Of a stretch of DNA of 64,000 bases, positions 16,398 to 64,000 are shown in pieces. Each line of letters begins with the position of its first letter. The stretch's first letter is position 1. Source of the stretch: an uncultured Spirochaetota bacterium (GTDB lineage: Bacteria > Spirochaetota > Spirochaetia > SZUA-6 > Fen-1364). The DNA is taken from the NCBI GenBank assembly GCA_963745235.1, contig CAVUXE010000045.1:1-64000 (forward strand). Direction: 5' to 3'. The notes below the pieces were generated by a model. It saw only the letters and a program-made list of their open reading frames with translations. It had not been told where the DNA came from and did not search any database. Both the position numbers and the translations under genes were made by a program.

Positions 16398-16607
16398 ATG
16401 GAAACAGGCAATCAGCGGCGCGGGCCCATCCGCGCGTTCTTTTTCAACAATTTCGAGCGGGTCAGGGCGATCAATCGAAAGTATGCCGGCCATCACGTCA
16501 CGATGACCCCGGCAGTGAAAGTCGCCCTCTTCATGCTGCGAATCTACCTGCTTGCCCTGGTGGGGATTTTGATCGCCAAGTTCTTCATGATCCTTTCCGG
16601 GAAATAG
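16398..16607 (+). CDS. Small single-TM membrane protein (69 aa) in the Mg operon
   Basis: AGGAGG-ATG; METGNQ...VALFMLRIYLLALVGILIAKFF; tightly packed between neighbours. Confidence 0.75.
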   Translation: METGNQRRGPIRAFFFNNFERVRAINRKYAGHHVTMTPAVKVALFMLRIYLLALVGILIAKFFMILSGK

Positions 16608-16617: not shown

Positions 16618-17889
16618 ATGCCGGAGCCACGGGTTCAGACAAAGCCGCCGGAGTTCTTCTTCATTTCGCAGCTTCTCAGGGACAGGGTGCTGAGGGAGCG
16701 GGGCGACAAGCTGGAGGTGCTGGGAACCCTGATCGACCTGGAGATCCGCCTCGGGCAGCACTACCCGGAGGTGGTCAACCTCATTGTGGGTCGGTCCTTT
16801 GGAAGACCACCCCTTGAAATCCCCGTCCGTTATGTGCGGTCCATTGACGCCCGGAGAAGCGTCGTCAACATCCCGGACGGACTGTCCCTCAAGGAGTTCG
16901 ACGGCGAATCATCCCGGATCCTCGTCAAGGATATGGTCCTGGACAAGAAGATCATTGATACGGACGAGTACGAAGTGGAAATCGTCTATGACATCCACCT
17001 GCTGCGCGCCGACAGCCGCATGCTCGTGGTGCACGTTGACGTAACAAAAGCGGGGATGCTCAGGCGGCTCCGCCTGGGCTGGCTCGCCCGCCTGTTGTGG
17101 GGGAAAGCGAAAGAGGCGGAGCTTCTGCCCTGGAAGTACGTTCAGCCCCTGCCGACCGATATCGACCGGTTCCATGGAAACGTGAAGCTGAACATCTCCC
17201 GCGAAAAGATAGCGGATATTCACCCGGCGGATCTCGCGGACATCCTGGAAGAGCTCAACACGGATGAGCGGGTGGCCATCTTCGACACCCTGGATACCGA
17301 GACAGCGGCGGACACCCTGGAGGAGGCGGAGCCCCGGGTCCAGCGGGACCTGGTGGCGTCCCTCCGGCATGACCGGATTGCGGAGCTTCTGCAGACCATG
17401 ACTCCGGCGCAGATTGCAGACCTCCTTGAGATCCTCCCGCGCATCGACGCGGAAGCCCTGCGAAAAACCCTTCCCGCTGAGACTGCGTCCAAGGTCAACG
17501 ATCTGCTGCAGGTGCACGAGGTCAAGCTGGGCTCGATGGCGACAACCAACTTCCTCGCGCTGCCCGCGGATGCCTTTGTCAGGACCGCGTTCACCAGGTT
17601 CCGAAACAAGAAGGCCCGCTTCGATGTCATCATGTACGTCTACGTGACAGGGGAGGACGGGACGCTGAAAGGAGTCGTGGACATACGAGAGCTGATCCGC
17701 AGCAAATCGGACGAGCGCCTGGGCAGCATCATGACGGAGCAGGTGGTCACGCTCTCGCCCGACGACACACTTTCAGACGCCGCCAGCGAGTTCTCCAAGT
17801 ACGGTTTCCGGTCTCTTCCCCTGGTCGACAAGGACCGCAAGCTCCTGGGAGTTGTCTCCTACAAGGACCTGCTGGCCATGAGGCAGTAG
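16618..17889 (+). CDS. Soluble MgtE N-terminal domain + CBS-pair protein (no TM domain)
   Basis: IHPADLADILEEL, AADTLEE, YVYV...LKGVV and LPLVD...LLGVV; ends after the CBS pair. Confidence 0.88.
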   Translation: MPEPRVQTKPPEFFFISQLLRDRVLRERGDKLEVLGTLIDLEIRLGQHYPEVVNLIVGRSFGRPPLEIPVRYVRSIDARRSVVNIPDGLSLKEFDGESSRILVKDMVLDKKIIDTDEYEVEIVYDIHLLRADSRMLVVHVDVTKAGMLRRLRLGWLARLLWGKAKEAELLPWKYVQPLPTDIDRFHGNVKLNISREKIADIHPADLADILEELNTDERVAIFDTLDTETAADTLEEAEPRVQRDLVASLRHDRIAELLQTMTPAQIADLLEILPRIDAEALRKTLPAETASKVNDLLQVHEVKLGSMATTNFLALPADAFVRTAFTRFRNKKARFDVIMYVYVTGEDGTLKGVVDIRELIRSKSDERLGSIMTEQVVTLSPDDTLSDAASEFSKYGFRSLPLVDKDRKLLGVVSYKDLLAMRQ

Positions 17890-48273: not shown

Positions 48274-48603
48274 TCAGGGGAAGAGCTCTTTGAGCGCTTG
48301 AGAAGCGGCGTAGATGCTGCCAACACCCGCCAGGTGACAGGTCACCCGCAGTACCTCGGCTATTTCTTCCTTTGTCGCTCCCGCATTTACCGCGGACTGC
48401 GCCAGAGATCGTACTCCGCTCACGGCGCCGTGGGACGCGTCAAAAGCCATCGCGATGAGCAACTTGATCTTTCTCGGCAGGGCGCCATCTGAATAGACCA
48501 GGCTATCCCCGCTTTTCATGTGGTCCATGAACACGGGATCGATTTTCATCATCGTCGTGAGAAACGACGATCCCTGGAGCTGGTCTTTGGGATTTTCCGG
48601 CAT
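48274..48603 (-). CDS. Carboxymuconolactone decarboxylase / AhpD-like protein
   Basis: GALPRKIKLLIA...GATKEEIAE. Confidence 0.85.
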   Translation of the reverse strand: MPENPKDQLQGSSFLTTMMKIDPVFMDHMKSGDSLVYSDGALPRKIKLLIAMAFDASHGAVSGVRSLAQSAVNAGATKEEIAEVLRVTCHLAGVGSIYAASQALKELFP

Positions 48604-48678
48604 GGAGAGCCTCCTTTGAGTTGTGCGTGAACGACCAATCCTCACAAGCTCCTCGGCAGATGTCAAGGAGGTTGAAGG

Positions 48679-49386
48679 TCACAGCCCCAGGTAGGCTTTT
48701 CTCACGTTCTCGTTGCCAGCGACGTCCGCGGAGGTGCCGGAAAGCACGATGGTGCCCGTCTGCAGGACGTAGGCGCGGTGCGCGACCCTGAGCGCCATCA
48801 GCGCGTTCTGCTCCACCAGGAGGATGGTGGTCCCCTTCGCGTTGAGCTCCTTGATGACGTCGAAGATCTGGTCCACGAGCACGGGGGCAAGCCCCATGGA
48901 GGGCTCGTCCATGAGGAGGATCTGCGGATGGGACATGAGGCCGCGGGCGGTTGCGAGCATCTGCTGCTCGCCGCCGGAGAGGGTGCCGCCCTTCTGATTC
49001 TCCCGCTCCTTGAGGCGGGGGAAGAGCGTGAAGGCGTACTCGATACCGTCCTGGATCTCGGCCTTGTCCTTGAGGATGTAGGCGCCCATCTCGAGGTTCT
49101 CCAGCACGGTGAGGCGCGGGAAGATGCTGCGGCCCTCCGGCACCATGCCGATGCCCCTCTGGTGAACCACGTGGGGGGCCAGCTGCGTGATGTCCGCTCC
49201 GTTGAGGAGGACCTTGCCCTCGCCGCGGGTGAAGGAGGCCGGAGATGGAGCGCAGGGTGGTGGTCTTGCCCGCGCCGTTCGCGCCGATGAGGGTGACGAT
49301 CTCGCCCTCCTCAACCGTGAGCGAAACGCCCTTGAGCGCGTGGATGTTGCCGTAGTAGGAGTGGATGCCGTCCAGTTCCAGGAGGC

Positions 49387-49390
<4 letters not shown>
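48679..49390 (-). CDS. livF: Branched-chain amino acid ABC ATPase (frameshift)
   Basis: [18 protein letters not shown] and DEPSMGLAP. Confidence 0.9.
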
Positions 49391-50253
<863 letters not shown>

Positions 50254-50286
50254 CCGTTGTCTCGTCCGCCGCGTCTGCCTTCGTCG

Positions 50287-51634
50287 TCATCGGCCCTTGA
50301 GCTCGCGCTTGCGCCGCGCCGCGGGAAGGATGCCCGCCGGCCGGTAGATCATCATGAGGACGAGGATGATGCCGAACACCAGGCGCTGGTACTTGGAGGG
50401 GTCGAGCTGGTTGGAGAGGTCCTTCCAGTGGAAGTTGATGATCGGGATCACCGCGTCGCTCTGCCGGAGCTGCGCGAGGAAGAGCGAGAAGCTCTGCAGC
50501 ACCTGCAGGTTGAGGAGGGTGACCACCGCCGCGCCGATGATCACTCCGGGGATGCTGCCGATGCCGCCGAGGATGACCATGGTGAGCACGCTCACCGACT
50601 GCGAGGAAGCGTGAAGGATTCGGGGCTGACGAAGGTGCGGCTCGCGGCGAAGAGCACGCCCATGGCCCCGGCGAAGGAGGCGCCGACCGCGAAGGCGCCG
50701 AGCTTGAGCCTGTTCGCCGGGATGCCCATGGCGGTGGCGGCGAGCTCGTCCTCGCGGATGGCCGCCCAGGCCCGCCCGATCTTGGAGTCGTCCAGGCGGT
50801 ACGTGACGATGATCACGGCGACCACCACGAGGACGGCGATGAGGTAGAACAGGATGTTGTAGAACTGGTTGGCCGTCACCGGGTGCCCGACCAGCGGCTC
50901 GAAGAGCGGTTGAAGAAGGCGAGGAGCTCCTGGGCAGGGTCGGCCGCTGGATCGGCGTGATGCCCTGGGGCCCGTTCGTGAGGTTGAGGGGCTTGTCGAG
51001 GTTGTTCGCGAGCTGGCGGACGATCTCGCCGAAGCCCAGGGTGATGATGGCCAGGTAGTCGCCGCGGACGCGCAGCACCGGGCAGGCCGAGGATGAGGCC
51101 GACGATGGCCGCCACGATGATCGCCGAGGAACATGAAGAGGTAGAACCAGTCGGGCGCCAGGAAGAAGGGCGTGCCGGGCGGCGCGGTGCCGGGTATCGC
51201 GTGGAGGAGGAAGGGCTGCTGGGAGCCGAAGAAGCCCCAGAGGTAGGCGCCCACCGCGTAGAAGGCCATGTAGCCGAAGTTGAGCAGGCCGGAGAAGCCC
51301 ACCACGATATTGAGGCCCGAGGGCCAGGGCCGAGAAGACCGCGATCTGGAAGATGACCTCCAGGTAGAAGATGTTGCGCGCGCCCGAGGATCGGCACGAG
51401 GACCACCGCGACGAGGACGGCCAGGGCGAGCTGTGCCGGCTTCTTCATGTCGCAGGAAGTAGGCGAGCGACGCTGCCGCCGACGAAGAGGAGGAAGGCGG
51501 GGATGGACCGCGGGCTCAGGTAGACGAGGACGAACCCTGCGGCGATGACAGCGCCGGTCAGCGAGTACGGCGTGGCGCCCCTGTTGCAGGACGCCGAGGA
51601 AGCGGCGCGCCATGTCCCGAAGCGTGGTTCTCAC
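50287..51634 (-). CDS. livM: Branched-chain amino acid ABC permease (many frameshifts)
   Basis: [34 protein letters not shown] and YRPAG. Confidence 0.85.
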
Positions 51635-51644
51635 CTCGCACCCC

Positions 51645-52836
51645 CTATGCCTTCTGCGAGACCTGCTCGCCGAGCAGTCCCGAGGGGCGGAAGATGATGA
51701 CGATGATCAGCACCAGGAAGGCGATGATATCCTTGTACTCGGACCCGAAGGCGCCCCTGGTGAAAGTTCCGAGGTAGGCGCCCGCGAAGCTCTCGAGCAT
51801 GCCAAGGACAATGCCGCCCAGGAGGGCGCCGGTGAGGTTGCCGATGCCGCCGAGGACGGCGGCGGTGAAGGCCTTGATGCCCGGGCATGAAGCCGACGAA
51901 GGGGTCGATGCGCGTGAACTTGAGGGCGTACAGGACGCCCGCCGCGCCGCCGAGGGCGCCGCCCATGAGGAAGGTGAAGGAGATGATCGCGTTGACGCCG
52001 ATGCCCATGAGGGCGGCGGTGGTGCGGTCCTGGGCCACCGAGCGGATGGCCTTGCCGATCTTGCGTCGCGTTGACGATGTAGTTGAGGCCGACCAGCATG
52101 AGGACGGCCGCGCCGATGACGACGAGCGACTTGACCTGGATGTCGACGCAGGGTGGCGTCCTGCCCGGTCGGGAGGGAGAAGAGGGGCAGGCGCTTGTCG
52201 AAATTGCCGAAGGTCGGGAATGACCCGGTAGAACTGGCCCGTCGTGAGGCTCTCCACGAGGCGGATGATGTCCTGCAGGGCGAAGGAGACGCCGATGGCC
52301 GAGATGAGGGGCACGAGCTGGGGCGAGTTGCGCAGGGGCCGGTAGGCCGTCCGCTCCACGAGCATGGCCATGCCGCCCGCGGCGGCCATGGCGACCGACG
52401 AGGGCGAGGGTGAGATAGAGGTAGGAGCCCATGGGGCCGGCGGCCTTGCAAGCACGCCGAGCTTGTCCATCGCGATGAGGAACTCCACGCCCGCGAAGGC
52501 GCCGATCGCGAAGATCTCGCTGAATGGGCGAAGTTGATGAACTCGAGGACGCCATAGACCATGGTGTAGCCCAGGGCGATGGCGGCGTAGACGAAGCCGA
52601 GGGTCACGCCGTCGATGAGGACCTGGGGCAGGTTGTTGAGGGTGTAGGCGACGATGCTGACGCCCTGCGTGTCATGGAGGAGCTTGTCCGCCCCCGAACC
52701 CTGCGCAGAGGAGGGCGAGGACGAACATCAGCGCGGAAAAGAGCGCGCCCGCGCCGGCGACGAAGACCGCCATCCTGCCCAGGGGCAGGAAGATCTCCCG
52801 CAGAGCGCGATCCGAGCTCTCATGGATCTTTCGCAT
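51645..52836 (-). CDS. livH: Branched-chain amino acid ABC permease (many frameshifts)
   Basis: ALGYTMVYG...INFAH, KAFTAAVLGGIG and FRPSGLLG. Confidence 0.85.
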
Positions 52837-52897
52837 AGCGAGCCTCCACCCGGAGACCGGGGAACGGAGCGTCTCACCGCATCCTGGTCCCGAAAGG

Positions 52898-52931
52898 CCC
52901 CCGCCCCGCGGAGACTCCGCGGGAGCAGGGG
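52898..52931. terminator. GC-rich hairpin between livK and livH
   Basis: CCCGCGGAG-A-CTCCGCGGG core with flanking CCCC/GGGG. Confidence 0.5.
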
Positions 52932-52947
52932 CGAGCAACGGTTGAGA

Positions 52948-54146
52948 TCAGCCACTGCGGAGGAGCGATGTCCAGGGTCTGGTCGATCTTGTTGGCCGAC
53001 CACTTGGCGGGATCTGCCGAGGTGACCTGGATGATGAAGTACTTGGCCTTGGTGAGGTCGCCCTTGGCGTTGAAGTTGATGGTGCCGGTGATGCCCTTGA
53101 AGTCCTTGAGGGCGCGGACCGCCTTGGCGACATCGGCGCGGGCGGGCAGCTTGTTGCCGGCGGCCATCGGCGGCGTTCTCGATGGCCTTGAGGGCGATGG
53201 CCGCGCAGTCGTAGGACTGGGCGGCGAAGGGCTGGGGCTCGGCGCCGAACTTGGCCTTGAAGTCGGTGATGAACTTGGCGGTGCCGGGGTAGACGCTCGC
53301 GGGGCCGGAGACCGTGGAGTAGTAGGTGCCCGCGCCCTTCAGGAGGGCGTCGCCGCCGATCTTGGCGGCGTCGGAGGAATCGAAGCCGTCGTCGGAGAGG
53401 AACATGCCCTTGAAGCCCTTCTGGCGGGCCTGCTTGAAGAGGACGGCGGCCTGGTCGAACATGCCGCCGAAGTAGATGACCTGGGGCTTGGCGGCGAGGA
53501 TGGGCGAGAGGATGGAGTCGAAGTTGGCCTTCTCCTCGGTGCCGTCGAAGCCGAGCACCTTGATGCCCGAGCTTCTCGGCCTCGTTCTTGAAGTACTCGG
53601 CGATGCCCTGGCCGTAGGCGGTCTTGTCGTGGAGGACGTAGGCGCGTCTTGATGCCCTTGGTGGCGGCGAACTGGGCGCCCACCGCGCCCTGGACGTCGT
53701 CGCGGCCGCAGACGCGGTTGACTTCCAGCGTAGCCGCGATCGGTGACCTTGGGGTTGGTGTTGGCGGGGGAGACGTTGACGAGGCCGGCGGCGTGGTACT
53801 CCTCGGAGGAGGGGATCTGGACGCCGGAATTGTAGTGGCCGACGACCGCGAGGATGGCCGGGTCGGCGACGATGCTCTTGGCGTTGGCAACGCCGGTGTC
53901 CGGGTTGCCCTGGTCGTCGAAGGGCGCGAGCTCGACCTTGAACCCCATCTTGGCCAGGGGTCCGGAAAGCTGCTCGACGGCGAGCTGGGCGCCGTTCTTG
54001 ATGTCGGTGCCGACGGCGGACATGCCGCCGGAGAGCGGGCTCTGGGTGGCGATCTTGATGACCTTGGGAGCGGGGGCTCCGCACCCGGCGAGCACGAGGC
54101 CCGCAAGGGCAAGTATTGCAAGAAAGAGAAAGACGGACTTTCGCAT
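52948..54146 (-). CDS. livK: Branched-chain amino acid ABC substrate-binding lipoprotein (frameshifts)
   Basis: Lipobox LAGC; PLSG, VVGHYNSG, DKTAYGQG and GITGTINF. Confidence 0.88.
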
Positions 54147-54485
54147 GGGTTCTTCCTCCTTAGAAGCTGGCTTTGAATCTTGTTTTTTCAAGACAGGAGC
54201 CGCGTGATTCCGGCGCGGATCCCGCTGCGAGGTGGCTGGTCTCTATAGTTCCGGCGCCCCTCCTTCCAGAGTTCGGGCACGTTCCCTGCCCTGGTCTCAT
54301 TCACCTGCGCTGCACCGGCGTTCGACGAGCCCGCAGAGGATGCGGGAGTCTAGACGCTGGAGGCCAGGACGTCAAGATTGCGTTCTACTCCGCCGCGATG
54401 GCCTTCTTTGGACAGCACATTACATTCTTAGAATAATCCCTTCGGGGGCCGAACGGAAAGGATTTTGTCGGGAAGGAGGCGAGCG

Positions 54486-55599
54486 ATGAGAGAAACCGCG
54501 GAACAGGTCATTACCGAAATCGAGATCAGGCGCTTTACCATCCCGTTGCGCGGGTCGGTTCAGATCTCCACCATGAACATGGAACGCGCGGAGAACCTGC
54601 TGGTAAAGCTTGTCAGCAGCGACGGTGTATGCGGCTGGGGAGAAGCATCACCCATGCGGTCCATCACGGGAGAAACGCAGGCGATTGACCTTGCGGCCGC
54701 GGCAGAGCTGAGGACGCTCCTCCTGGGCAGAAACCCGCTGGCCATCGGCGCCTTGTCAGCCTTGATGGCCCGGCATCTCCCTCACAATACGACCATCCGA
54801 AGCGCGTTCGATATGGCGCTCTATGACATCGCCTCACGGTACGCCTCCATGCCCTTGTACCGGTTCCTTGGAGGGGAGCAACGCGACCTGGAAACCGACA
54901 TTACCATCTATATCGGTGATCCTGGCGAAGCAGGTGCGCGGGCTGAGCAGCTCCTCCGCGCCGGTTTCCGCGTCATCAAGGTCAAGGTAGGGCTCGATCG
55001 GGGAGACGACCTCAAGAGGGTTGATGTGATTCGCCGGGCAATCGGCAAGACGCCGAGACTGCGAATAGACGCGAACCAGGCGTGGGGCCGGACCGGCCGC
55101 CTTGAGCATGCTCCGTTCTCTGGAGGAGCATTCGATCGAGTTCTGCGAGCAGCCCTGCCTTGCCGCTGACCTCAGGACCCTGAAGTTCCTTTCCGCGAAC
55201 AGCCCCATCCCGATCATGGCGGATGAATCCCTCTTCAGCCCGCAGGATGCCCTTGCACTGGATCGCGACGATGTCGTGCCCTATTTCAATATCAAACTGA
55301 GCAAATCCGGTGGACTCTACCAGGCCCAGCGGATTGCGCACATTGCTGCCGCGGGCGGACGGGTCTGCATGATAGGAGGCATGTCCGAGTCCCGCCTGGG
55401 AGTGACGGCGGCAGCGCATTTTGCCCTGGCCAACCCGATAGTCGAGTTCTGCGATCTCGATTCTTTCTATGAGCACCGGGACGATCCGATCCACGGAGGG
55501 TTGACCATTCGAGACGGGAAGGTAATTGTCCCCGACGAACCCGGGATAGGCGCCGTGCCGGATGAGTCATATCTTGCATCTCCCCCCGCCCGCGTATAG
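54486..55599 (+). CDS. Dipeptide epimerase (enolase superfamily; frameshift ~55090)
   Basis: GWGEA, KVKVG, RIDAN, EQP, MADES, NIKLSK and DLD. Confidence 0.88.
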
Positions 55600-55622: not shown

Positions 55623-58600
55623 ATGGCGTCCAACAAGAGGAAACACACGCGCGTCGATCACCGCGCAGCCGTGGAGCTCACGTCGGAGTCCTCCATATTT
55701 CCCGGTACGTCTGTCAACGTCAGCGTGAGCGGAATGCAGGTGGTGGTCGGACTGCCGGCGTCGTACGATTCGATCCAACGTATTGCATTTCATATCCCTG
55801 GCTCTGATAAGCGCGTCGAGCTGCCCTGCCGGCTGATTCGCAACTCGGAGCACGACGGTGAAGGTGACCAGGTCCTGGGCCTGGAGTTTCTCTATGAAGC
55901 CGATGCCCAGCTCCTGCTCATAGAGAAGTTCATCCAGGACAGCCAGCCGGGCCGGGACGATGCGCGCCAGCTTCCTCGAACTTCCTGCCGCCTTGACGAT
56001 GTCACGGTCGATACCCCCGCCTTTCACGTCCTCTCAATCGACAATCTCTCCACCGAGGGAATGCTCCTGAGCTTTCGCGGGAACCTGAAAGAAGGGGACG
56101 CGCTCGCCATGAGCGTCGGCATTCCCGGCGACGACCGCCGTCTTGGCCTCTCGGGAACGGTCGTCTACGTTGTCGAGAACGTGTTTCGCGGCTCCCTGAC
56201 GGCCGGCGTTCGATTGTCGACCTTGAAAGAGACCGAGGAAAGCCGACTCAGGAATCTCATCGTCGCCTGCTCATCAGGGAGCGCATTGCGCGGACTGCAC
56301 GAGCATCTTCATTCCAAGGAGATGGAACCCGAGTCCCGAATTGTAGATCCGGTCCTGATCGGCGACATCCTGCATTCACTGAAAGTGGAATGCGTTCGAT
56401 TGAGCACCCTGGTGGAAGGATCTTTCACCATCATCGAGCACGAGCTCGAAGGCGTTGACCTTGGATTGCAGCGGTTTGCAATCAGAGCAGGCAGCGAGCT
56501 TGCCACACGCAGTCTCGGACCGGGGGCGACGGCGTACTTCAGCTTCTATTGGAAGAAGGCCAGCTACTATTTCAAGGCGGTCGTGGGCTCCGCCCGTGAT
56601 GATCTCCTCAGGTTTTCCTTTCCGAGCGTCATGTTCCGCTCGGACAAGAGGTCATACCAGAGAAAGCCGCTGGAGAGCGCCTCCCGCGCAAGGCTCGCAA
56701 TACGCGGGCATACGTTCGAGGGGACACTGATCGATATCAGCCGCAGGGGGTTTCTCTGCGAGCTTCACCTTCCTGCCGAATCCCAGGCATTCTTCCAGAA
56801 AGGAAAAAGCCTTCACTACACCGTGGATGACAGGCTCGGGCTGGGAAGCGAAGGCCAGATCCGGCACCTGAGAGTGCTGCCAGCGCCGGAGGGCGTCGTT
56901 CTGCAAGTGGGCGTGGAAGCGGGAATCGGGAGAAACGCGGTGCGCTTCCGGCGCATCCCAGCCGAAAAATGGGAAGAAAGAACCTCTCGCAGCGGCGGCC
57001 TCCCGGGTTCTGAACGACGCATCGAGTCTCATTTCGTGCGGTTTCCCGACCGGGCAGGCCATGAGATCTGCGCCCTGCTCAATGCGACCGAGCTGCGAGT
57101 CAAAGCCCCGGTCGTCATCATTCCTTCCGCGTACGGGAAAAAGAAGGAAGCATTCTCTCCCCTCGTGGCGACTCTGCTCGCGAGCTTCTGGAGCGAGGGG
57201 AGAAACATAGTCACGCTCCGCTATGATGGCGTCAATCGTCCGGGTGAAAGCCATCGGGACGAGATGAACCCGAAGCGCGGGTACGAAATGCTCACCTACA
57301 GGATCAGTCAGGGGCTCGGTGATCTCGAGGCGGCGTTGGATTTCGCGAACGATAACCCATACTTCGTTGCTGAAAAGGTGATCGTCATCTCCTTCAGCAT
57401 GGCCGCCATCGATGTGCGGCGCTTCCTGAGCCGGGATGAAGGCACGGCAATCGACTACTGGGTCAGCGTCATGGGGGTTCCTTGCGCGCAAACGACTCTG
57501 CGCAACATCCTCGGCGGAATCGATATCGTCAGCAACTATCGCCTGGGAATCCCCAACGGGATCATAGGGCTGTTGGGGCATCTGATCGACATGGACATCA
57601 CGGCCGCTGATTTGGTCGACAGAAGGTACGCCTTCCTGACCGACGCGCGCCTCGACATGTCTCGAATCGCAATTCCCGTGCTGTGGATCTACGGCCTGTA
57701 CGACAGATGGGTCGACATCGATGAGGTGAAGGACCTCATGTCGGTCAAGGCGCCGGGGAGACGCGAGATTGTCGAGATCCCCACCGGACACAACCTGCGC
57801 ACCAGCGACGATGCCATCGAGACTTTCAAGCTGATCACGGCCTCCATCCATGAGGAGCTCTACGGCACGCGGATAGTGGCCCGAGACCCATGGAAGGAGG
57901 AGATGATTCGCCTGCTCACCGAGGAGCGTGAGCGTCTCCAGAACAGGGTCGCTCCCCCTCTGACCGAATACTGGCGCGGGTACCTGCTCGGAAACGAAAG
58001 GAATCGCGTCGGCTACGACTTCTACAGGAACATTCCGGAGTTCACCGACTTCCTCAGAACGCAGGCAAAGTGCCTGGCGCTCGGGGAAGGGGAGATCATT
58101 GCCGACCTGGGTTGCGGGACCGGCATTTTCCTGGAGGCGCTGCTGGACTTCATCGCTGAGGCGGGAGCGCGAATATCGGCAAAGGAGATCATGGCCGTTG
58201 ACCTCGTTCCGGATGCCCTGGACAAGGCGCGGCAAAAGTGTGAAGACGCTCTTGCCTTGAACCCCCGCCTGCGGAGCATTCACTTCCAGTACGCGCAAAA
58301 GAACCTGGAGCCCAATCGGCTCATTCCCGTTTCGCGCTTCATCGAGTCGAAGGTGCCTTCCCTCGATTCACTGAGGAACAAAATCGAGGGCCTTTCAGGA
58401 AAAGTGCTGGACAGTCTCATAGAACGCGCATCTCCCGACGTGTACGCCGTGATGCGCGGCGGGACGCCGGAGGGGGAGCCCTTTCTAAGGTTGAAATCGA
58501 CGCTGCAAGCCGTCGAGCTTCAGACGGTCCTGGAGTTCAACAGGGCGGCCCGATACCTCTTGCACAGGCTCGAGAAGCATGACTTGAGACCTGACCGGAT

Positions 58601-59122
58601 TTCGGAAAATGTTTCCCTGGAATGCCTGCGCACGAGCGATCTGGTGTTCGAGAAGCTCAACTTTGGAGACTATGATTCCAATCTCGGACTGGGCTTGCCC
58701 GGCGAACCATTTCACCAGGATCGTCGCAAGTCTCTTCATCTCGTATCTCCATAACCCTGACTACGCGCTTGCCGAATGCTACAGAATGTTGAAACCAGGC
58801 GGCATCCTCCTTGTCTCCTCCATGAAGCCTGACAGCGACATCTCAATGATGTTCACCAACTATATCAGGAAGACGCTGACCCCGAATTGCTCCGAGGATG
58901 ACGGGATGGAAAATGGGGTGAGCGGCGCACGGGCCATGCTGAATGAGGCCGCCAGTCTCTTCGAGCTGGAAGAGGACGGCTTTTTCAGATTCTACACGCT
59001 CGAAGAGCTGAAAGACCTGCTGGCTGACGCTGGATTCGTTGAGGTCACCGGTGCTTTCTTCCATGGGAGACCCTCCTCAGGCTTGCATCGCAGTTGCAAA
59101 AAAGACCTTGACAACATCTTAG
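55623..59122 (+). CDS. Multidomain protein: three PilZ domains + LuxD-like alpha/beta hydrolase + class I SAM methyltransferase (frameshifts ~58700 and ~59055)
   Basis: RKHTR/NVSVSG, RQLPR/NLSTEG and RSYQR/DISRRG; LRYDG, SFSMA, DRWV and GHNL; DLGCGTG; ECYRMLKPGG. Confidence 0.8.
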
Positions 59123-59135
59123 ATTACTCTACAAT
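59108..59135 (+). promoter_or_regulatory. Sigma70-type promoter for the ligase-ACP-radical SAM-kinase unit
   Basis: TTGACA-N16-TACAAT in an AT-rich patch. Confidence 0.65.
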
Positions 59136-59174
59136 AGCCACTATACCAAAAAACTCCACTAGGAATGAAATCAA

Positions 59175-60569
59175 ATGGTTGGAATAGGGAGAAAGATAGA
59201 CGAAGCGTTGCATGACTGGGGCGATTCGCCTGCATTTCTTCAAGTCACCCAGGCGAACGGGGCCACTGTCATCCCCTCCATCGCGTTCTCGCAGAAGATC
59301 TTGGAGATTGCGAGCCAACTCCAGGCATGGGGGATCCGAGAAAAGTATCTCGTTCCGATTTTCCTGGGCAACTCGACAGATTTCATTGCCATCTTTCTTG
59401 CCCTGATTCGCATCGGCGCGATCCCCGTCCTCGCCAAGCTGGACTACCGAACGCTGGAGCTCGACGAAGTATTCGCCAACGCGCAGCCGCAGGCGGTGAT
59501 AGCTGAGAAAGAGCACCTCCGGCACCTGTCGCCATACCTCCACAATTCCATCGTTATCGTTCGATCAGGGGATCAGTTCCTGCTGGAACAGTCCGTCGAG
59601 GGCCTGACGCGCCGGGAGGACATTCCCGACGATATCGCGTCCATCAACTATACCTACCGCGGGTACGGGTATCCGCTGGGGGCCATGATCTCCCATGACC
59701 AGTACCTTCACGGCGCCAGGGTACTGCAGGACGGGCTGCAGGGGTCTGCGGGAGAGAAGATGCTCATTATCCTGCCGATGGCGCACATTTTCACGATGGT
59801 AGGATGCGTCCTGGTCCCCTTGCTCTACCGGATGACCAGCGTCATTGTCGATACGTTGCACCCCCGACTTCTCTTTCAATACATTCGTGATTTCCGTATC
59901 GAGCACATCACATCCGTTCCGGAAGTTTACGAGCTGCTCTACCGGCTCCGCGACCCCGCGGTCGACCTTTCCTCACTGAAGGTCTTTGTGTCGGGAGGCA
60001 GCATCCTGACCCCTGACAGCTACGCGAATCTCAAGAGGGCCTTTTCGATCGACCTGCTTCATGGATACGGCCTGACGGAGTTCACTCCGGTCAGCCGCAA
60101 CATGCGAGGTAAGTCCCGGTCGGGAACGGTCGGACCCCTGTGTGACCTCGTGGAGTGCCGAATCGACTCTTGCAGCCCCGGCGGGGCAGGAGAGATCCTG
60201 ATCAGGACGCCGCATATGACGGGTACGTACTACCGCAGGCCGCGCGAGTCGGCCGAGGCGCACAACGATGGCTGGTTCAGGACGGGGGACATGGGCCGTA
60301 TCGATGCGGGACACCTTGTATTCGTGAAAGAGTTGAAGAATACGCGCAAGATAAATGGAAATCTCGTGGACATCGAAGAGGTCACACGCGCCCTCAAGCT
60401 GGACCCCGATGTGGCGGACGCACAGGTGGGTTGGGAGAGCAACTCCCTGTTCGCGCGGGTCGCGGTGAGCCAGCGCATCGACTTCGATGAGAAGGCGAGA
60501 CGTATGAAGTCCCTCCTCAGAGAGGTCATAGCGGAGTACAAGGTTCCGAAACGATTCAGCGTGCTTTGA
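59175..60569 (+). CDS. AMP-binding (ANL superfamily) acyl ligase, atypical
   Basis: LPMAH, SGG, GYGLTE and WFRTGD; P-loop region reads YTYRGYGYPLG. Confidence 0.85.
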   Translation: MVGIGRKIDEALHDWGDSPAFLQVTQANGATVIPSIAFSQKILEIASQLQAWGIREKYLVPIFLGNSTDFIAIFLALIRIGAIPVLAKLDYRTLELDEVFANAQPQAVIAEKEHLRHLSPYLHNSIVIVRSGDQFLLEQSVEGLTRREDIPDDIASINYTYRGYGYPLGAMISHDQYLHGARVLQDGLQGSAGEKMLIILPMAHIFTMVGCVLVPLLYRMTSVIVDTLHPRLLFQYIRDFRIEHITSVPEVYELLYRLRDPAVDLSSLKVFVSGGSILTPDSYANLKRAFSIDLLHGYGLTEFTPVSRNMRGKSRSGTVGPLCDLVECRIDSCSPGGAGEILIRTPHMTGTYYRRPRESAEAHNDGWFRTGDMGRIDAGHLVFVKELKNTRKINGNLVDIEEVTRALKLDPDVADAQVGWESNSLFARVAVSQRIDFDEKARRMKSLLREVIAEYKVPKRFSVL

Positions 60570-60602
60570 CGAAAGCACCTGCCCTGAGGAGGGATACGGC
60601 AG

Positions 60603-60878
60603 ATGGGCAATGTGCAGGAAAACTGGAACCCGGATAAGTTCAAGAAGGAAATCAAGCAGATCGTTTCGAAAATTTCCCGAATCGAAGCAGCGGATCTGGA
60701 GGACCACCTTCTGATTCGCGAAGAGCTGGGAATCGACAGCCTGATGGCAATGGAGATTATCGCCACCTGCGAAAAGCTCCTGCGACTGAAGATCGACGAA
60801 ACACTGTTCGGTGAAATACAGACTGTCGGAGACTTTCTTGACCTTCTCGTAACGCTCTCAGGGCGGGCGGATGCGTGA
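60603..60878 (+). CDS. Acyl carrier protein
   Basis: LGIDSL phosphopantetheine motif; TVGD; AGGAGG SD. Confidence 0.92.
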   Translation: MGNVQENWNPDKFKKEIKQIVSKISRIEAADLEDHLLIREELGIDSLMAMEIIATCEKLLRLKIDETLFGEIQTVGDFLDLLVTLSGRADA

Positions 60879-62190
60879 GTCCCGGATCCGCATCCTTCTT
60901 GTCTCCCCCAAGGGGGAGTTTCTCTGTCGATCGCCCGAGTTCGGAGAGTTCATGCAGAGCTCACGCGACATGCGGACCATTCTGCACTTCTGGAACGGAA
61001 TTGGTGTCGCGCTACCGACGCTCGCCGCTCTGACACCGCCTTCGTTCGAAGTATTCATCGTTGACGAGAACATGGAGCCCATAGACTTCAGTGCTCCGTG
61101 TGACATTGTGGGCGTTACCGCCATGACCCAGCAGGCCACACGAGCCTATGAAATCGCGGATGAGTTTCGAAGGAGAGGGCGTCACGTAGTTCTTGGAGGC
61201 ATCCACGTGACTGCACTGCCCGGTGAAGCGATGCATCACGCGGACACGGTCATTGCGGGTGAGGCGGAAAACCTGTGGCCCAAGTTCCTGCAGGACTTTC
61301 AATCGGGAACGACACGTCGTATCTACGATCAGGAAGGGATCTCGCCCGTGGACATGACTCGCATCCCTGTGCCCCGCTACGAGTTGCTCGCGAAGTATCG
61401 CTACCCGGTTGTATACGTTCAAGCGACGCGCGGATGTCCGCACGATTGCGAGTTCTGTGTTGCGTCCAACATCTACGGGAAAAGATACAAGCACAAGACC
61501 GTTCAGCAAGTCGTGAACGAGGTCACGGAGGCGAAAAGGCTCTGGAAATACGCGCAAATCGGCTTCGCGGATGACAACATGTTCGTTGATCACGCGTACT
61601 CGACTGAGCTCGTCGAAAGGCTGAAGGAGCTGAAAATTGCCTGGTTCGCGATATGCGACATCGCCGTTGCCAAGGACGAAGCATTCCTCCGCCTGCTCCA
61701 CGAGAGCGGGTGCCGCACTCTCCTCATTGGATTCGAGAGTGTGTCCAAGACAAGTCTCCACGGCATGAACAAAGACGCGTGGAAACAAAAGCGATTCGAT
61801 TCCTACCCGGAGTATATCCGGAGAATTCAGAGCCAGGGGATCGGCGTCTATGGATCCTTCATTCTCGGGCTGGACGATGACGGTCCTGAGTCGATCGATG
61901 CGACTGTTAATTTTGTCAACGATAATATCCTCTTGGGAACACAGATTACTCTTCTCACCCCCTTCCCGGGCAGCCGTCTGCGCTCCCGGCTCGAGCGGGA
62001 GCGGCGGATCGTTCATGATGATTGGAAGTGGTACACCGTTTGGAACTCAGTGATCCGACATCCCAGGTTCACGTCCGAGGAGCTCGAGAGGGGGCTTCTG
62101 CGAGCGTACGAAGGGGTGTATAATCCCGAGAGCAACGCCAGGCGTGCCCAGTATTTTCGAAAGGTGTGCGAAAATCTCGTCGAAGGGTAG
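60871..62190 (+). CDS. B12-binding domain radical SAM protein
   Basis: LGGIH and GEAE N-terminal domain; RGCPHDCEFC; DDN, GFES and TPFPGS. Confidence 0.93.
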   Translation: MRESRIRILLVSPKGEFLCRSPEFGEFMQSSRDMRTILHFWNGIGVALPTLAALTPPSFEVFIVDENMEPIDFSAPCDIVGVTAMTQQATRAYEIADEFRRRGRHVVLGGIHVTALPGEAMHHADTVIAGEAENLWPKFLQDFQSGTTRRIYDQEGISPVDMTRIPVPRYELLAKYRYPVVYVQATRGCPHDCEFCVASNIYGKRYKHKTVQQVVNEVTEAKRLWKYAQIGFADDNMFVDHAYSTELVERLKELKIAWFAICDIAVAKDEAFLRLLHESGCRTLLIGFESVSKTSLHGMNKDAWKQKRFDSYPEYIRRIQSQGIGVYGSFILGLDDDGPESIDATVNFVNDNILLGTQITLLTPFPGSRLRSRLERERRIVHDDWKWYTVWNSVIRHPRFTSEELERGLLRAYEGVYNPESNARRAQYFRKVCENLVEG

Positions 62191-62192
62191 CG

Positions 62193-64000
62193 ATGGGCTC
62201 TCGGAATCCCGCAATCTCAAGCGACCAACTCTCTTTGCGAGCCGGATTCGAGGCGGAAACCCGAGACAAGGCGGTCCGTGACACCCGTCTCACCGCGATC
62301 GTTGCCAGTATTCTCTTCCTTCTGTTCTGCATTCTCGACTATTTCGCGTATCCGCGTTCGTTCCTTCTTTTTTTCCTGATACGGTGCGTGGTCGTGCTTG
62401 GCAGCGGGCTGATCTTTCTCCTGATGTGGACCCAAGTTGGCACGAGGCATCCCCGGCTTTTTGCCATGCTGGAGTACATGTTGTGCGGCTCGGGAATCGT
62501 GCTCATGGTCCATTTGTCGGATGGGTATGCCAGCCCATACTACGCCGGGGTCAACCTGGTCCTGATGGCGTTCATTTCCATCATTCCCCTCGACGCAAAA
62601 AGAACAGCGCTGATATGCACCATTCTGTATGCAATTTACCTGATTCCGATCCTCGCCCTGCAGAGGATCATCCACTTCCACATTTTCCTGAACAACAACT
62701 TCTTTCTTGTTGCCACTATTGTTCTCGTAGTCCTCAGCTCGCGCCTTGCCACTCAGATGCGATTTCGGGAGTTCAGCGCGAGGTTCAATCTCGCCCGTGC
62801 GAATGAGGAACTGAAGAAGCTGGACATCCTGAAGTCGCAGTTCTTCGCGAACGTGAGTCACGAAGTCCGCACTCCACTCACTTCCATCCTGTCTCCCATC
62901 CAGAGCCTGTACCAGGGGGACCTCGGACCACTGAATCCCGACCATCAGACGGCTGGTGGGCCAGGTCTATCGCAACTCGCTCAAGCTGCTCGACATGATC
63001 AACCAGATGCTTGACTTCTCGAAGTTCGAGGCCCGCAAGATGCAGCTTCACCTCAGGCACCTGGATATCGACGAGCTCGCCCGAGACATCGTCACCACAT
63101 TCCAGGACGTCACGGAACGAAAGGGATTGAAGCTTCGCTACGTGAGGGAAGGGGAGCTGCGGCCCGCCTATCTCGATGCGGAGAAACTGGAGAGGATTCT
63201 CACCAACCTCATACGCAATGCCATCAAGTTCACGGAAAGTGGCTCCATCACGGTTCGCGCCGGCGCCAGCCTCAAGCAATCGATTGGGTCGAAGTCAGGG
63301 ACACCGGCATCGGCATTCCCTCGCAGCACCTGGCGAACATCTTCAACAGATTCCAGCAGGTGGATTCCTCCAGCACGCGAAAATATGAGGGCACGGGGCT
63401 TGGGCTTACTATCGTCAAAGGAGTCGGTGGATCTGATGAAGGGAAGCATCAAGGTCCAGAGCGAGGAGAGCACGGGGCACGGCATTCCGCGTCGAGCTGC
63501 CGACCAACCTGGACACAGCTGGTTCCCGACGCATTCATCGACAGGCGGAAGGATCAGCCGCGCCGGCAGACCGCGGACGATTTCGACGGAGAAGAGAGAA
63601 GAAGACAGGCGCGCCGGGAATCGGACCAGTCGCGAGGATCAGCGTGGACGACCTCGCGCTCATAGAGAAAGAGACCATGGAGCGTCGGAGCGGGGAGAGG
63701 ACGGCGTCTTCGCCCACGCCGGGCAACGGCAAGGCGGACCGTGTCCTTCTGGTGGAAGACAACATCGACCTCAGGGCATACATCAGCAAAATGCTTTCGC
63801 GTTTCGGACATGAAGTGGCGACGGCGATCGACGGGCTGGACGGCTGGGAGCACGCGCAGACAGACCTTCCCGACCTCGTGGTCTCGGACATCATGATGCC
63901 CCGCATGGACGGGTACGAGCTGGTCAGCCGCATCAAGTCAACCGACACGACCCGCCACATCCCGGTGATCCTGATCACGGCGAAGCCGGAGCTGGAATCG
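62193..64000 (+). CDS. Multi-TM hybrid sensor histidine kinase with receiver domain (frameshifts; runs off the window)
   Basis: About 6 TMs; [11 protein letters not shown]-box, [17 protein letters not shown] and GTGLGL; REC VEDN...[10 protein letters not shown]...ITAK. Confidence 0.9.

Follow-up and report, generated by a model that had tools for sequence, protein, structure and literature searches.

Five neighbouring genes close to the end of the window, as we call the whole 64,000-nucleotide stretch of DNA analysed here, are a conserved module in bacteria, and at a probability of roughly 70% we read their domains as a self-contained, horizontally mobile unit that couples c-di-GMP signalling to a small-molecule pathway based on an acyl carrier protein (ACP). 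A carrier-bound, lipid-like molecule is probably released and methylated by an enzyme that reads c-di-GMP, and the module may thereby make a novel type of cell-to-cell signal. The module is undescribed so far; an earlier reading made from the DNA alone (the sequence-only reading) had not recognised this combination from any described system, and we likewise found no description of it in the literature. The genes and domains are arranged as follows.

55623..59122, + strand: fusion gene (PilZ, PilZ, YcgR-like PilZN plus PilZ, LuxD-like hydrolase, SAM methyltransferase), ~1165 aa when read through
55632..56924, + strand: putative c-di-GMP-reading region of the fusion gene (PilZ-1, PilZ-2, PilZN-like domain plus PilZ-3)
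57009..57917, + strand: LuxD-like alpha/beta-hydrolase domain of the fusion gene, with invariant Ser592, Asp694, and His723
57930..59122, + strand: class I SAM methyltransferase domain of the fusion gene, with a helical insert of ~170 aa; carries both frameshifts of this gene
59175..60569, + strand: ANL-superfamily (AMP-binding) enzyme, 464 aa (Pfam AMP-binding, E 2.1e-50, 172 bits)
60603..60878, + strand: acyl carrier protein, 91 aa (PP-binding, E 6.6e-10)
60871..62190, + strand: B12-binding radical SAM enzyme, 439 aa, with CxxxCxxC (Radical_SAM plus B12-binding)
62193..62807, + strand: kinase sensor domain, six TM helices, MASE8-like, frame intact
62808..64000, + strand: kinase transmitter (HisKA, HATPase_c) and start of REC, cut at the window end

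The observation on which the sequence-only reading was built, namely five closely spaced, co-directional genes, was partly confirmed. All five lie on the + strand and close together: three of the junctions are gaps (52, 33, and 2 nt), and at the other the radical SAM gene overlaps the ACP gene by 8 nt; the kinase gene begins 2 nt past the radical SAM stop, at ATG 62193, the same codon at which its relative P0122 begins. The gene content is as had been described, except that the first and last genes are frame-broken in the window.

A genome scan identified 189 relatives of the fusion protein, from which 78 loci were retained, and gene-content counts were restricted to the 53 related loci with ≥6 kb downstream. 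The ligase-like gene, the ACP gene, the kinase core, and the REC domain are each present in 53/53 of these loci, and the TM domain is present in 52/53; thus the PilZ fusion and the kinase, whose co-conservation the sequence-only reading had proposed as a test, lie beside the ligase-like and ACP genes in every case. The radical SAM gene, which had been counted as a full member, occurs in 41/53 loci and is absent or a mere remnant in the other 12, and along the ligase tree it switches between present and absent at least six times, which makes this B12 radical SAM gene an accessory part of the module. Among the 63 loci with ≥1.5 kb downstream, the ligase-like gene is the immediate downstream neighbour of the fusion gene in 62, and at locus L023 the fusion gene stands by itself, with the rest of the module missing. 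This five-gene arrangement is far above chance expectation. No sixth conserved gene family was found across the 78 loci (the next commonest occurs in 9/78), and none of the five proteins scored as high as the cut-off of an NCBIfam model.

Pfam identified PilZ in three stretches of the fusion gene (E 8.6e-24). The motif residues are R6/R10 and N32-S34-G37 in PilZ-1, R115/R119 and N141-S143-G146 in PilZ-2, and R343/R347 and D371-S373-G376 in PilZ-3, which is preceded by a PilZN-like domain; these motifs are present in at least 57 of 59 aligned rows. Positions 247-434 of the fusion-protein profile match PP4397 (2gjg) and 3kyf, both YcgR-like. From the motifs, we infer that the three canonical PilZ domains bind c-di-GMP, and in doing so they would gate the two fused catalytic domains. 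Cellulose synthase BcsA is a PilZ-gated enzyme in which c-di-GMP exerts direct allosteric control; as in BcsA, canonical PilZ motifs and a catalytic domain occur on one polypeptide, suggesting direct gating by c-di-GMP. Unlike BcsA, the fusion protein has three PilZ domains, the third of which forms part of a YcgR-like pair, and the gated activities would be those of a thioesterase-like hydrolase and a methyltransferase rather than a glycosyltransferase. This architecture is not mentioned in the consulted parts of two PilZ surveys (10.1101/2020.02.11.943704 and 10.1101/814665).

Based on profile and model comparisons, the hydrolase domain is LuxD-like, i.e., it resembles an acyl-ACP thioesterase. 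LuxD is the myristoyl-ACP thioesterase/acyltransferase of Vibrio harveyi (PDB 1tht). When a profile of 41 hydrolase sequences was searched against the PDB, 1tht was the sole match under E 0.1 (E 7.2e-5), and when the AF2 model of the domain (pLDDT 92.4) was submitted to Foldseek, 1tht again ranked top (E 7.8e-15, TM 0.77/0.79). The Ser/Asp/His triad is present in 59/59 rows; counting residues on the profile alignment places the invariant Ser and Asp opposite positions 114 and 211 of LuxD, both of which are catalytic there. As in LuxD, the nucleophile occurs in a motif of the A/S-x-S-x-S-A type, not GxSxG, and precomputed domain annotations include PF02273 for 17 of the 120 fusion homologues listed. 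However, identity to LuxD is just 15-16%, the LuxD Pfam score of the fusion protein (16.3 bits) is under the curated cut-off of 20.3, and the NCBIfam LuxD score is also under its cut-off. The module hydrolase further differs from LuxD in sharing one polypeptide with PilZ domains and a methyltransferase, and no luxC, luxE, or luciferase genes are present. Judged by fold and triad, this serine hydrolase would take the acyl group off the dedicated ACP, which fits the release step that the sequence-only reading had proposed.

The methyltransferase domain retains motif I, DxGxGxG, in 59/59 rows, and its structure was modelled at pLDDT 87; however, Foldseek matched this model to generic methyltransferases only (TMq ≤0.40), with no specific relative. 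The enzyme may methylate the released product or a precursor, with a carboxyl methyl ester as one option only. Because the fold is generic, a methyl ester is just a guess. In Ralstonia, the PhcB/PhcS system has a methyltransferase that makes 3-hydroxy fatty acid methyl esters, and these are sensed by a membrane kinase. By description, the module resembles it in that a SAM methyltransferase is encoded next to a multi-TM sensor kinase, and fatty acid methyl esters would be plausible products; Phc is not known to have a PilZ domain, ACP, ligase, radical SAM enzyme, or HD-GYP domain. The two catalytic domains could instead protect and release a substrate in the manner of BioC and BioH, with the methyltransferase capping the free carboxyl of an ACP-bound dicarboxylate for processing and the hydrolase later cutting the methyl ester rather than the thioester. 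The top NCBIfam matches of the methyltransferase do include BioC, at 39 bits versus a cut-off of 185, and source annotations name the hydrolase “pimeloyl-ACP methyl ester carboxylesterase,” a generic COG name. We nevertheless consider such a role very improbable: every score is far under its cut-off, fatty-acid elongation genes are missing from the module, and the hydrolase finds its only PDB sequence match under E 0.1 and its best structural match in the thioesterase LuxD, not in BioH-type esterases.

The adenylating enzyme of the sequence-only reading does belong to the AMP-binding family, but two canonical adenylation motifs are missing. Across 62 aligned rows, the P-loop takes the variant form TYRGxGxxLG rather than the canonical one, and in an alignment to the best PDB match (8wev), the enzyme stops ~25 residues short of the end of that structure and consequently lacks the C-terminal A10 lysine motif. 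This ANL-like enzyme is non-canonical and may not perform the usual adenylation. Loading of the ACP by the enzyme, which we infer, is uncertain because of the two missing motifs. The DS phosphopantetheine site of the ACP is conserved in ≥90% of 60 rows, and the B12 radical SAM enzyme, where present, would tailor the ACP-bound chain.

The kinase has six predicted TM helices followed by HisKA, HATPase_c, and REC, and the window ends within REC. Over its first 256 residues it is 98.8% identical to P0122, a protein of 836 aa with HD_5, and the two are 98-99% identical wherever the window sequence is clean. In relatives, the kinase continues through the rest of REC into HD-GYP, which would lie outside this window. 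HD_5 was detected in loci L001, L004, and L056 (E 1.9e-36 to 3.2e-35) and is carried by 48/51 close sensor homologues; of 49 full-length kinases, at least 90% retain the H-box, the receiver Asp, and the HD, HxE, and GYP motifs. By these motifs, the kinases of relatives end in an intact, predicted HD-GYP c-di-GMP phosphodiesterase domain. The relatives contributed three points that the sequence-only reading lacked: the HD-GYP domain of the kinase, the LuxD-like nature of the hydrolase, and the variant ligase motifs.

With its MASE8-like 6-TM sensor, HisKA, HATPase, and REC domains, the kinase would phosphorylate its own receiver, and receiver phosphorylation would in turn set the activity of its own HD-GYP phosphodiesterase. 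The parts consulted of an HD-GYP survey preprint describe RpfG-type phosphodiesterase activity as dependent on REC phosphorylation (10.1101/2021.11.05.467447). The flow supported by the domains would thus run from the sensor to HD-GYP, the c-di-GMP level, PilZ, and finally the enzyme. Because the kinase carries HD-GYP and the enzyme carries PilZ, the two would be linked through c-di-GMP itself; this link explains their co-location, which is therefore not a specific argument that the kinase senses the product.

In the Rpf/DSF system of Xanthomonas (synthase RpfF, ligase RpfB, multi-TM hybrid kinase RpfC, and RpfG with REC-HD-GYP), a multi-TM hybrid kinase controls an HD-GYP phosphodiesterase via a receiver domain, as is predicted for the module; in both, the kinase gene adjoins fatty-acid-handling enzymes that include an ANL-type ligase, and a lipid signal, putative in the module, is tied to c-di-GMP turnover. 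Whereas HD-GYP belongs to a separate regulator in Rpf, it is fused to the kinase in the module, and the synthase side of the module combines the LuxD-like hydrolase-methyltransferase with a dedicated ACP and, optionally, a B12 radical SAM enzyme, with no Pfam match to a crotonase (RpfF) among the ORFs of the window. The module synthase also differs in carrying three PilZ domains, and we know of no PilZ gating of the synthase in Rpf systems. RpfC binds DSF, according to the consulted part of one report (PMC5391125).

The module may likewise form a closed loop, in which the adjacent 6-TM sensor binds the module product, derived from the ACP, tailored by the radical SAM enzyme, and possibly methylated; c-di-GMP would switch synthesis of this product on or off via PilZ, and the signal would act through kinase, REC, and HD-GYP on c-di-GMP, giving an autoinducer circuit like DSF-RpfC-RpfG with second-messenger feedback. 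We hold this reading tentatively, at somewhat short of an even chance. The sensor has very short loops between its six TM helices and invariant E22, D49, R64, Y116, G119, F171, and R197, and the polar intrahelical residues D49, R64, H107, N168, and N169 are invariant or nearly so; a sensor so fully embedded in the membrane would suit a ligand that is hydrophobic but carries a polar head group.

The history of the sensor also favours the closed loop. Using Spearman correlation of identity matrices (30 loci, 435 pairs), we found that the TM domain follows the ACP (0.72) and the radical SAM enzyme (0.69) rather than its own transmitter core (0.46), and its correlation with the fusion protein or the ligase is 0.06-0.16. 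When ligase and core were controlled in a partial Mantel analysis, TM remained correlated with radical SAM (0.75) and ACP (0.67), and 0/2000 permutations were as high. There is an abrupt change in identity at the TM/HisKA junction; for example, loci L011 and L056 share 0.36 identity in TM and 0.92 in the core. Two divergent pairs gave finite estimates, and in both the TM dS is 2-3x that of the flanks; it is not elevated in two pairs with conserved sensors, and in five further pairs TM dS did not resolve. Loci L007 and L011 are reciprocal best matches for radical SAM and TM, not for ligase or core. These patterns are suggestive of a sensor domain that behaves as a swappable cassette with the ACP and radical SAM genes; however, ACP, radical SAM gene, and TM segment are contiguous in the DNA, so linkage alone could yield the same pattern, and recombination between conserved flanks could mimic it without functional matching.

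Alternatively, the circuit may only feed forward, with the kinase sensing an unrelated membrane or environmental cue, setting c-di-GMP via HD-GYP, and so gating the PilZ enzyme, whose product (for example, a volatile or a modified lipid of the membrane or surface) would be an output that the kinase does not sense. An HD-GYP output beside a PilZ input suffices to explain the strict pairing of the two genes, and TM domains commonly diverge within families, which we count in favour of this alternative. With 3780 representatives at E ≤0.001 and 125 at E ≤1e-30, the sensor belongs to a broad family that occurs chiefly in other settings; among 69 sampled members, 8 have HD-GYP and 61-62 are kinases of other architectures. 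A sensor of the same kind is also kept in loci without the radical SAM gene, which tells against the closed loop. On the other hand, beyond linkage, a feed-forward circuit gives no account of why the sensor tracks the ACP and radical SAM genes over its own transmitter, and the module, across the 78 loci, has no conserved gene for an acceptor lipid or an exporter; we regard this circuit as possible, a little less so than the closed loop. The interpretation of the sequence-only reading as a whole is partly supported. As for the kinase being the receptor of the product, the co-inheritance of the sensor speaks for it, whereas the c-di-GMP explanation of the co-location and the breadth of the sensor family do not.

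For the closed loop, the agrBDC pherotype cassettes of staphylococci offer a parallel. There, signal-making genes and the membrane sensor of the receptor form a variable cassette beside a conserved kinase transmitter, and the module similarly has a variable central part, including the sensor and the putative signal-making genes, flanked by a conserved transmitter. Unlike agr, the chemistry of the module would be lipid-like rather than peptide, and only the ACP and radical SAM genes vary with the sensor, whereas the main synthase does not.

In the window, the fusion gene is broken by two frameshifts, located near 58699-58712 and 59054-59109 by comparison with its intact relative P0001 (1165 aa, 98% identical). 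The 1043-aa ORF runs only as far as 58754, a further ORF in a different frame (58609-59187) encodes the second half of the methyltransferase, and the true stop is the TAG at 59120-59122. The kinase gene has six frame changes between about 62940 and 63640. These breaks could mean that both genes are pseudogenes and that the module is dead in this genome. Only 3/8 junction regions across the two genes contain a homopolymer of ≥4, so simple homopolymer error cannot account for all shifts, and the six kinase shifts are bunched within ~700 nt, while the ~3 kb of ligase-like, ACP, and radical SAM genes are clean. However, we consider decay unlikely and, because the near-identical relatives P0001 and P0122 are intact, favour sequence error, which is also suggested by a local fall in identity to P0122 at the kinase breaks, to 75-88% versus 98% in the flanks, as if sequence quality were poor along this stretch. 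Other, unrelated genes of the window are likewise split: an outer-membrane barrel gene (2057-5347) into four ORFs, an MR_MLE gene (54465-55599) into two, and ABC-transporter genes (48503-54191) in the same manner.

The genes of the module lie in the window as follows, and their coordinates and domains are based on the ORF listing and Pfam/NCBIfam matches.

55623-59122, + strand, fusion gene encoding three PilZ domains, an alpha/beta-hydrolase and a class I SAM methyltransferase
59175-60569, + strand, ligase-like AMP-binding (ANL) protein of 464 aa
60603-60878, + strand, carrier protein (ACP) of 91 aa
60871-62190, + strand, B12-binding radical SAM protein, with an 8-nt overlap with the ACP gene
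from ATG 62193, + strand, kinase comprising six hydrophobic helices, followed by HisKA, HATPase_c and the first part of a receiver, cut by the window end

The kinase ATG is 2 nt past the radical SAM stop. The sequence-only reading had described five co-directional genes, and all five are located where it placed them on the + strand; however, the fusion gene and the kinase gene are frame-broken in the window.

We used 32 aligned fusion-protein homologues (alignment A1) to scan species-representative genomes; this analysis identified 189 fusion-protein relatives, and 78 loci were kept. Based on organism names, 66 of these belong to Spirochaetota and six to Thermodesulfobacteriota, two are labelled Bacillota, one is from Aminicenantes, and three are unplaced. 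Genes in the loci were counted using tblastn with the window's proteins. The ligase-like gene lies directly 3' of the fusion gene in 62 of the 63 loci whose downstream DNA extends for at least 1.5 kb. The sole locus with a solitary fusion gene is L023 (2738-6298), where a truncated Na:alanine symporter, DsbD and pyruvate kinase are encoded downstream. Among loci with at least 6 kb downstream, the ligase-like gene, the ACP gene, the kinase core and the receiver were each present in 53/53, and the TM sensor was present in 52/53, with only a sensor fragment in locus L020. The radical SAM gene was identified in 41 of the 53 loci (38 downstream on the same strand and three elsewhere in the locus); the other 12 have no radical SAM gene, and remnants remain in two of them (L008 and L017). 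The order ligase-ACP-radical SAM-kinase occurs in 34 loci and ligase-ACP-kinase in 12, with other orders in seven. All-against-all clustering of 1043 ORFs identified no sixth conserved family, as the commonest further family occurs in 9/78 loci.

We built a tree of 46 ligase-like proteins, excluding seven of the 53 loci in which no intact ORF of at least 400 aa was matched. The presence of the radical SAM gene switches at least six times on this tree. The ligase-like proteins of L061 (Desulfotignum) and L064 (Aminicenantes) nest within the spirochaete ones, which fits the transfer of an entire module from one phylum to another; two loci from MAGs labelled Eubacteriales (L040 and L071) are not part of the tree. 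Based on the locus counts and this nesting, the module has a core of four genes, to which a tailoring gene is added as an accessory member, and it has crossed phylum boundaries. According to the names given by the sequence sources, module holders include the cultured Salinispira pacifica and Desulfotignum phosphitoxidans DSM 13687, which makes experiments feasible.

The fusion gene is not a single open frame in the window: a 1043-aa ORF reaches a stop at 58754, and the latter half of the methyltransferase is encoded in a different frame. Alignment to P0001, an intact fusion protein of 1165 aa that is 98% identical, places frameshifts near 58699-58712 and 59054-59109 and the true stop codon (TAG) at 59120-59122. 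The kinase gene has six frame changes between about 62940 and 63640. Compared with P0122, an intact kinase relative of 836 aa, the window kinase has 98.8% identity over the first 256 residues and about 98% in the receiver, and identity falls to 75-88% in short segments at the frame breaks. Unrelated genes of the window are broken across frames in the same manner, including a CarboxypepD_reg/OMP beta-barrel gene in four ORFs (2057-5347), fragmented ABC-transporter and permease genes (48503-54191, where GC skew is unusually high at 0.14-0.17), and an MR_MLE enolase-superfamily gene in two ORFs (54465-55599). This suggests that the window sequence is indel-rich in patches. Taken at face value, the broken frames would mean that both genes are dead in this organism, which we consider unlikely; because intact relatives with 98% identity exist, identity dips locally, and unrelated genes are split the same way, local sequence error is the more likely cause than decay. 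Homopolymer error does not explain all of the frameshifts, as a run of four or more is present in only 3/8 junction regions. Local base composition shows no anomaly.

Pfam identified PilZ in the fusion protein in three stretches (84.3 bits vs a cut-off of 22.5). The motifs of all three PilZ domains are conserved in at least 57/59 aligned rows, and a YcgR-like N-domain that matches PP4397 (2gjg) and 3kyf precedes the third. The fusion protein is thus a predicted c-di-GMP reader. Within the hydrolase, Ser592, Asp694 and His723 are invariant in 59/59 rows. The only PDB match of a hydrolase profile (41 sequences) below E 0.1 was 1tht (E 7.2e-5), which is LuxD, a myristoyl-ACP thioesterase. By our residue count, the invariant Ser and Asp align to LuxD residues 114 and 211, presumably its catalytic residues. 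The AlphaFold model of the hydrolase (pLDDT 92.4) also gave 1tht as the top Foldseek match (TM 0.77/0.79, E 7.8e-15). Neither curated LuxD model reached its cut-off (Pfam PF02273, 16.3 bits vs 20.3; NCBIfam NF052253, 20.8 vs 420); because fold and triad match and the curated models were missed, we describe the predicted hydrolase as LuxD-like rather than as a LuxD.

In the methyltransferase domain, motif I is invariant and a helical insert spans ~170 aa (model pLDDT 87). Foldseek matched it only to generic class I enzymes (Coq5, CmoA, phosphoethanolamine methyltransferases and others) with TMq at most 0.40, and this fold search yielded no acceptor-specific relative. Searching for shorter hydrolase-methyltransferase proteins that lack PilZ gave 29 matches. 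Many come from short contigs (1-3 kb), and several on longer contigs could be fragments of split genes. The 29 matches do not indicate a named stand-alone hydrolase-methyltransferase family.

Source annotations of the fusion homologues are generic (e.g., “PilZ domain-containing protein”). The homologue from D. phosphitoxidans DSM 13687 (P0114) is named “tRNA-specific adenosine deaminase TadA” by the sources; as this protein has the PilZ and methyltransferase domains of the fusion family, the name is probably a misannotation. Two other homologues (P0054 and P0101) carry an additional receiver domain (PF00072).

Full-length kinases of the module are ~840 aa long and comprise the TM sensor, HisKA, HATPase_c, REC and HD-GYP. 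The window kinase frames hold HisKA, HATPase_c and REC, the domain set of a hybrid histidine kinase, and these are contiguous in the kinases of L001, L004 and L056 and in P0122. The HD_5 model matched all three relatives scanned (3/3; E 1.9e-36, 3.2e-35 and 6.5e-36) as well as 48/51 close homologues of the sensor region, and the three without HD_5 are 465-587 aa long. The H-box, N/G boxes, receiver Asp, HD, HxE and GYP motifs are each kept in at least 90% of 49 full-length kinases. The window ends inside REC, and the near-identical P0122 carries HD_5; we infer from these relatives that the kinase of this genome has an HD-GYP domain. Based on the REC followed by an HD-GYP with conserved motifs in the relatives, the kinase is predicted to act through an RpfG-type c-di-GMP phosphodiesterase. 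In an HD-GYP survey preprint, the activity of RpfG-type proteins is described as dependent on receiver phosphorylation (10.1101/2021.11.05.467447). The kinase of locus L005 (16582-19671; 1029 aa) has two receiver stretches ahead of its HD-GYP.

Going by domains alone, the kinase output would break down c-di-GMP, and the PilZ inputs of the neighbouring enzyme would read it. The resulting link would be one-way, from the sensor through HD-GYP, c-di-GMP and PilZ to the enzyme, and it would account for the 53/53 pairing without further assumption. The sequence-only reading had proposed co-location of the PilZ fusion and the kinase with the ligase, ACP and radical SAM genes in other genomes as a test of the idea that the kinase is a receptor of the product. 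The fusion, kinase, ligase-like and ACP genes are present together in 53/53 loci; the idea passes this test, yet the outcome does not discriminate for it.

The ligase-like protein clearly has the ANL fold (Pfam AMP-binding, 172.1 bits vs 29.9). ANL enzymes have an A3 P-loop of the form T[ST]G[ST]TGxPKG and a C-terminal A10 motif that holds the catalytic lysine. The A3 P-loop is absent: TYRGYGYPLG of the window protein stands opposite “tsgstgrpkg” of 8wev, and the variant TYRGxGxxLG occupies this site in at least 90% of 62 rows. Family members all have a length of about 465 aa, and the 62 aligned rows all stop before A10; in the window protein, the last residue (464) aligns to residue 466 of the 491-residue chain of 8wev, its best PDB match, and since the protein thus ends ~25 residues short, the A10 lysine motif is absent. 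These proteins may represent an unusual, uncharacterised branch of the adenylate-forming superfamily. The ACP matched PP-binding (39.5 bits vs 20.8), with the DS serine motif in at least 90% of 60 rows. The radical SAM protein matched Radical_SAM (56.7 bits) and B12-binding (38.9 bits vs 32.1), and its CxxxCxxC motif (C189, C193 and C196) is invariant in 42 rows; it is predicted to be cobalamin-dependent (class B). None of its 26 NCBIfam matches, which include HpnJ, ladderane, BchE, PhpK, HpnR and other named B12 radical SAM families, came near its cut-off, and the best was HpnJ at 115 bits vs 577.6. NCBIfam gave no name for any of the five proteins.

The most economical reading of the enzyme side is a four-step ACP chemistry, every step of which we infer from sequence. 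The dedicated ACP would be loaded with an acid, the B12 radical SAM enzyme would optionally tailor the ACP-bound acid, the LuxD-like domain would take it off the ACP, and the fused methyltransferase would methylate the released acid or an earlier intermediate. ACP loading is the weakest link of this pathway model because the ligase-like protein has a variant P-loop and no A10.

The sensor has a history different from that of the rest of the kinase. Between loci L011 and L056, amino acid identity is 0.36 in the sensor vs 0.92 in the kinase core, 0.90 in the receiver and 0.95 in HD-GYP, and the fusion, ligase-like, ACP and radical SAM proteins are at 0.38-0.53. The step in identity falls at residues ~200-214, the TM6/HisKA junction, in all seven pairs examined. 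These identities were taken from tblastn segments, among which the ACPs of L029 and L031 have an identity of 0.99. We also computed identity matrices for the 30 loci with all ten segments (435 pairs) and compared them by Spearman correlation, which separated three blocks: PilZ, hydrolase, methyltransferase and ligase (within-block 0.32-0.73); ACP, radical SAM and sensor (0.59-0.72); and kinase core, REC and HD-GYP (0.87-0.88). For the sensor, the coefficients are 0.72 against ACP and 0.69 against radical SAM, but just 0.46 against the core of its own protein and 0.06-0.16 against the first block. In partial Mantel tests that controlled for ligase and core, sensor-radical SAM was 0.75 and sensor-ACP 0.67 (0/2000 permutations as high in each case), whereas sensor-hydrolase was -0.12 and sensor-REC 0.03. 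Loci L007 and L011 are mutual best matches for the radical SAM protein (0.59) and the sensor (0.54), but not for the ligase-like protein or the core.

Synonymous divergence, although noisy at this depth, is higher in the sensor than in its flanks for L029/L031 (dS 2.96 vs 0.66-0.94) and L001/L004 (1.93 vs 0.70-1.10); in two pairs with conserved sensors, sensor dS is 0.33-0.34 and not raised. Because TM dS was saturated in the other five pairs, only these four inform the comparison. The sensor dS above that of the flanks in the divergent pairs points to replacement of the sensor by recombination rather than only fast protein change.

The pattern shared by ACP, radical SAM protein and sensor resembles a specificity cassette. 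Such tracking would be expected if the kinase senses the product of the module, a closed loop to which we give somewhat less than even odds. However, the three segments are contiguous, so that exchange between conserved flanks could yield the same pattern without functional matching. The large size of the sensor family also argues against a dedicated receptor. It comprises 3780 representatives (50% clustering) at E up to 0.001, of which 125 are at E up to 1e-30. Among the best 150 matches, we scanned 69 of the 114 proteins of at least 400 aa, and only eight have HD-GYP, compared with 62 with HATPase_c and 47 with REC; most are hybrid kinases without HD-GYP, and GGDEF, EAL, an adenylate/guanylate cyclase domain and SpoIIE each occur in single members. 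D42, R57, YY-G, Y142 and N161 are nearly invariant across the family, a widespread putative intramembrane sensor. The sensor may be related to MASE8: the local model (PF20968.2) gave E 0.013 (16.1 bits vs 26.2) in the L004 kinase, E 0.56 in that of L056, no match in L001 or the window, and matches in 7/69 family representatives, whereas precomputed PF20968.4 matches are present on 43/51 homologues, and the best Atlas cluster is MASE8 (score 0.96).

Alternatively, the kinase might only feed forward, responding to an unrelated cue and setting c-di-GMP without sensing the product; we hold this as possible, though well short of even odds. Two further comparisons favor neither this nor the closed loop. 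Sister loci that differ in radical SAM presence have sensor-divergence ratios that overlap those of same-state pairs and do not discriminate, and complex prediction for the sensor (residues 1-215) with the radical SAM enzyme, run without controls, scored 0.00, which is evidence neither way.

Returning to the closed loop, its fullest form would be a lipid-type autoinducer system, not previously described, in Spirochaetota and, by transfer, in some Desulfobacteraceae and others, to which we assign a probability of roughly 0.3. A carrier-bound acyl chain would be tailored by the cobalamin radical SAM enzyme and then released, and possibly methylated, by the c-di-GMP-gated LuxD-like/methyltransferase enzyme; the adjacent 6-TM kinase would sense the chain in the membrane, and its own HD-GYP would reset c-di-GMP. 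ACP, radical SAM protein and sensor would be exchanged as one specificity cassette and would set the “pherotype,” in the way that agr does with peptides.

Rpf/DSF is the known system nearest in logic, with a lipid signal, a multi-TM hybrid kinase and a REC-HD-GYP protein. Its synthase is a crotonase (RpfF), whereas the module is without one: no crotonase domain was identified in the window's ORFs, and the 78 loci share no additional conserved family. The module also differs in that HD-GYP is fused to the kinase and PilZ domains are part of the biosynthetic enzyme. PhcB/PhcS, LuxD, PilZ-gated BcsA and agr-type cassettes each have one feature in common with the module. Searches of full-text literature found no description of the module or the fusion architecture and none that pairs PilZ with LuxD, and the architecture is not mentioned in passages of two PilZ surveys (10.1101/2020.02.11.943704 and 10.1101/814665) or the HD-GYP survey (10.1101/2021.11.05.467447). 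We rate the module as a lipid-linked c-di-GMP circuit from a new set of parts.

The c-di-GMP effectors known to date act mostly on polysaccharide synthases, motors, transcription and proteolysis. A c-di-GMP-gated thioesterase-methyltransferase with its own carrier, if true, would extend the reach of the messenger to lipid or secondary metabolism. The module pairs a dedicated phosphodiesterase (kinase-REC-HD-GYP) and a dedicated c-di-GMP reader in one transferable unit, and with this pairing the local wiring of a second messenger can be tested in a compact system. Should the sensor bind the product, the module would represent the first proposal of a quorum-sensing-like chemistry in free-living Spirochaetota and a lipid counterpart of peptide pherotype cassettes.

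A promoter and terminator scan of the window, which reports consensus matches only, identified a sigma-70-like site at 59108-59135 (+ strand; TTGACA, 16 nt, TACAAT; 11/12 matches). This site spans the fusion-gene stop 40 nt upstream of the ligase-like start and, as a consensus match, might act as an internal promoter that serves the four genes that follow. Scanning the entire window with Rfam gave no riboswitch near the cluster, and no tRNA genes were found in the window. Elsewhere, an M-box magnesium riboswitch (RF00380; 122 bits vs a gathering score of 44) is located at 14889-15074 (+ strand), upstream of a 482-aa ORF without a Pfam match (15159-16607) and a gene encoding an MgtE-N/CBS protein (16618-17889); together, these likely form a Mg2+-regulated transport operon.
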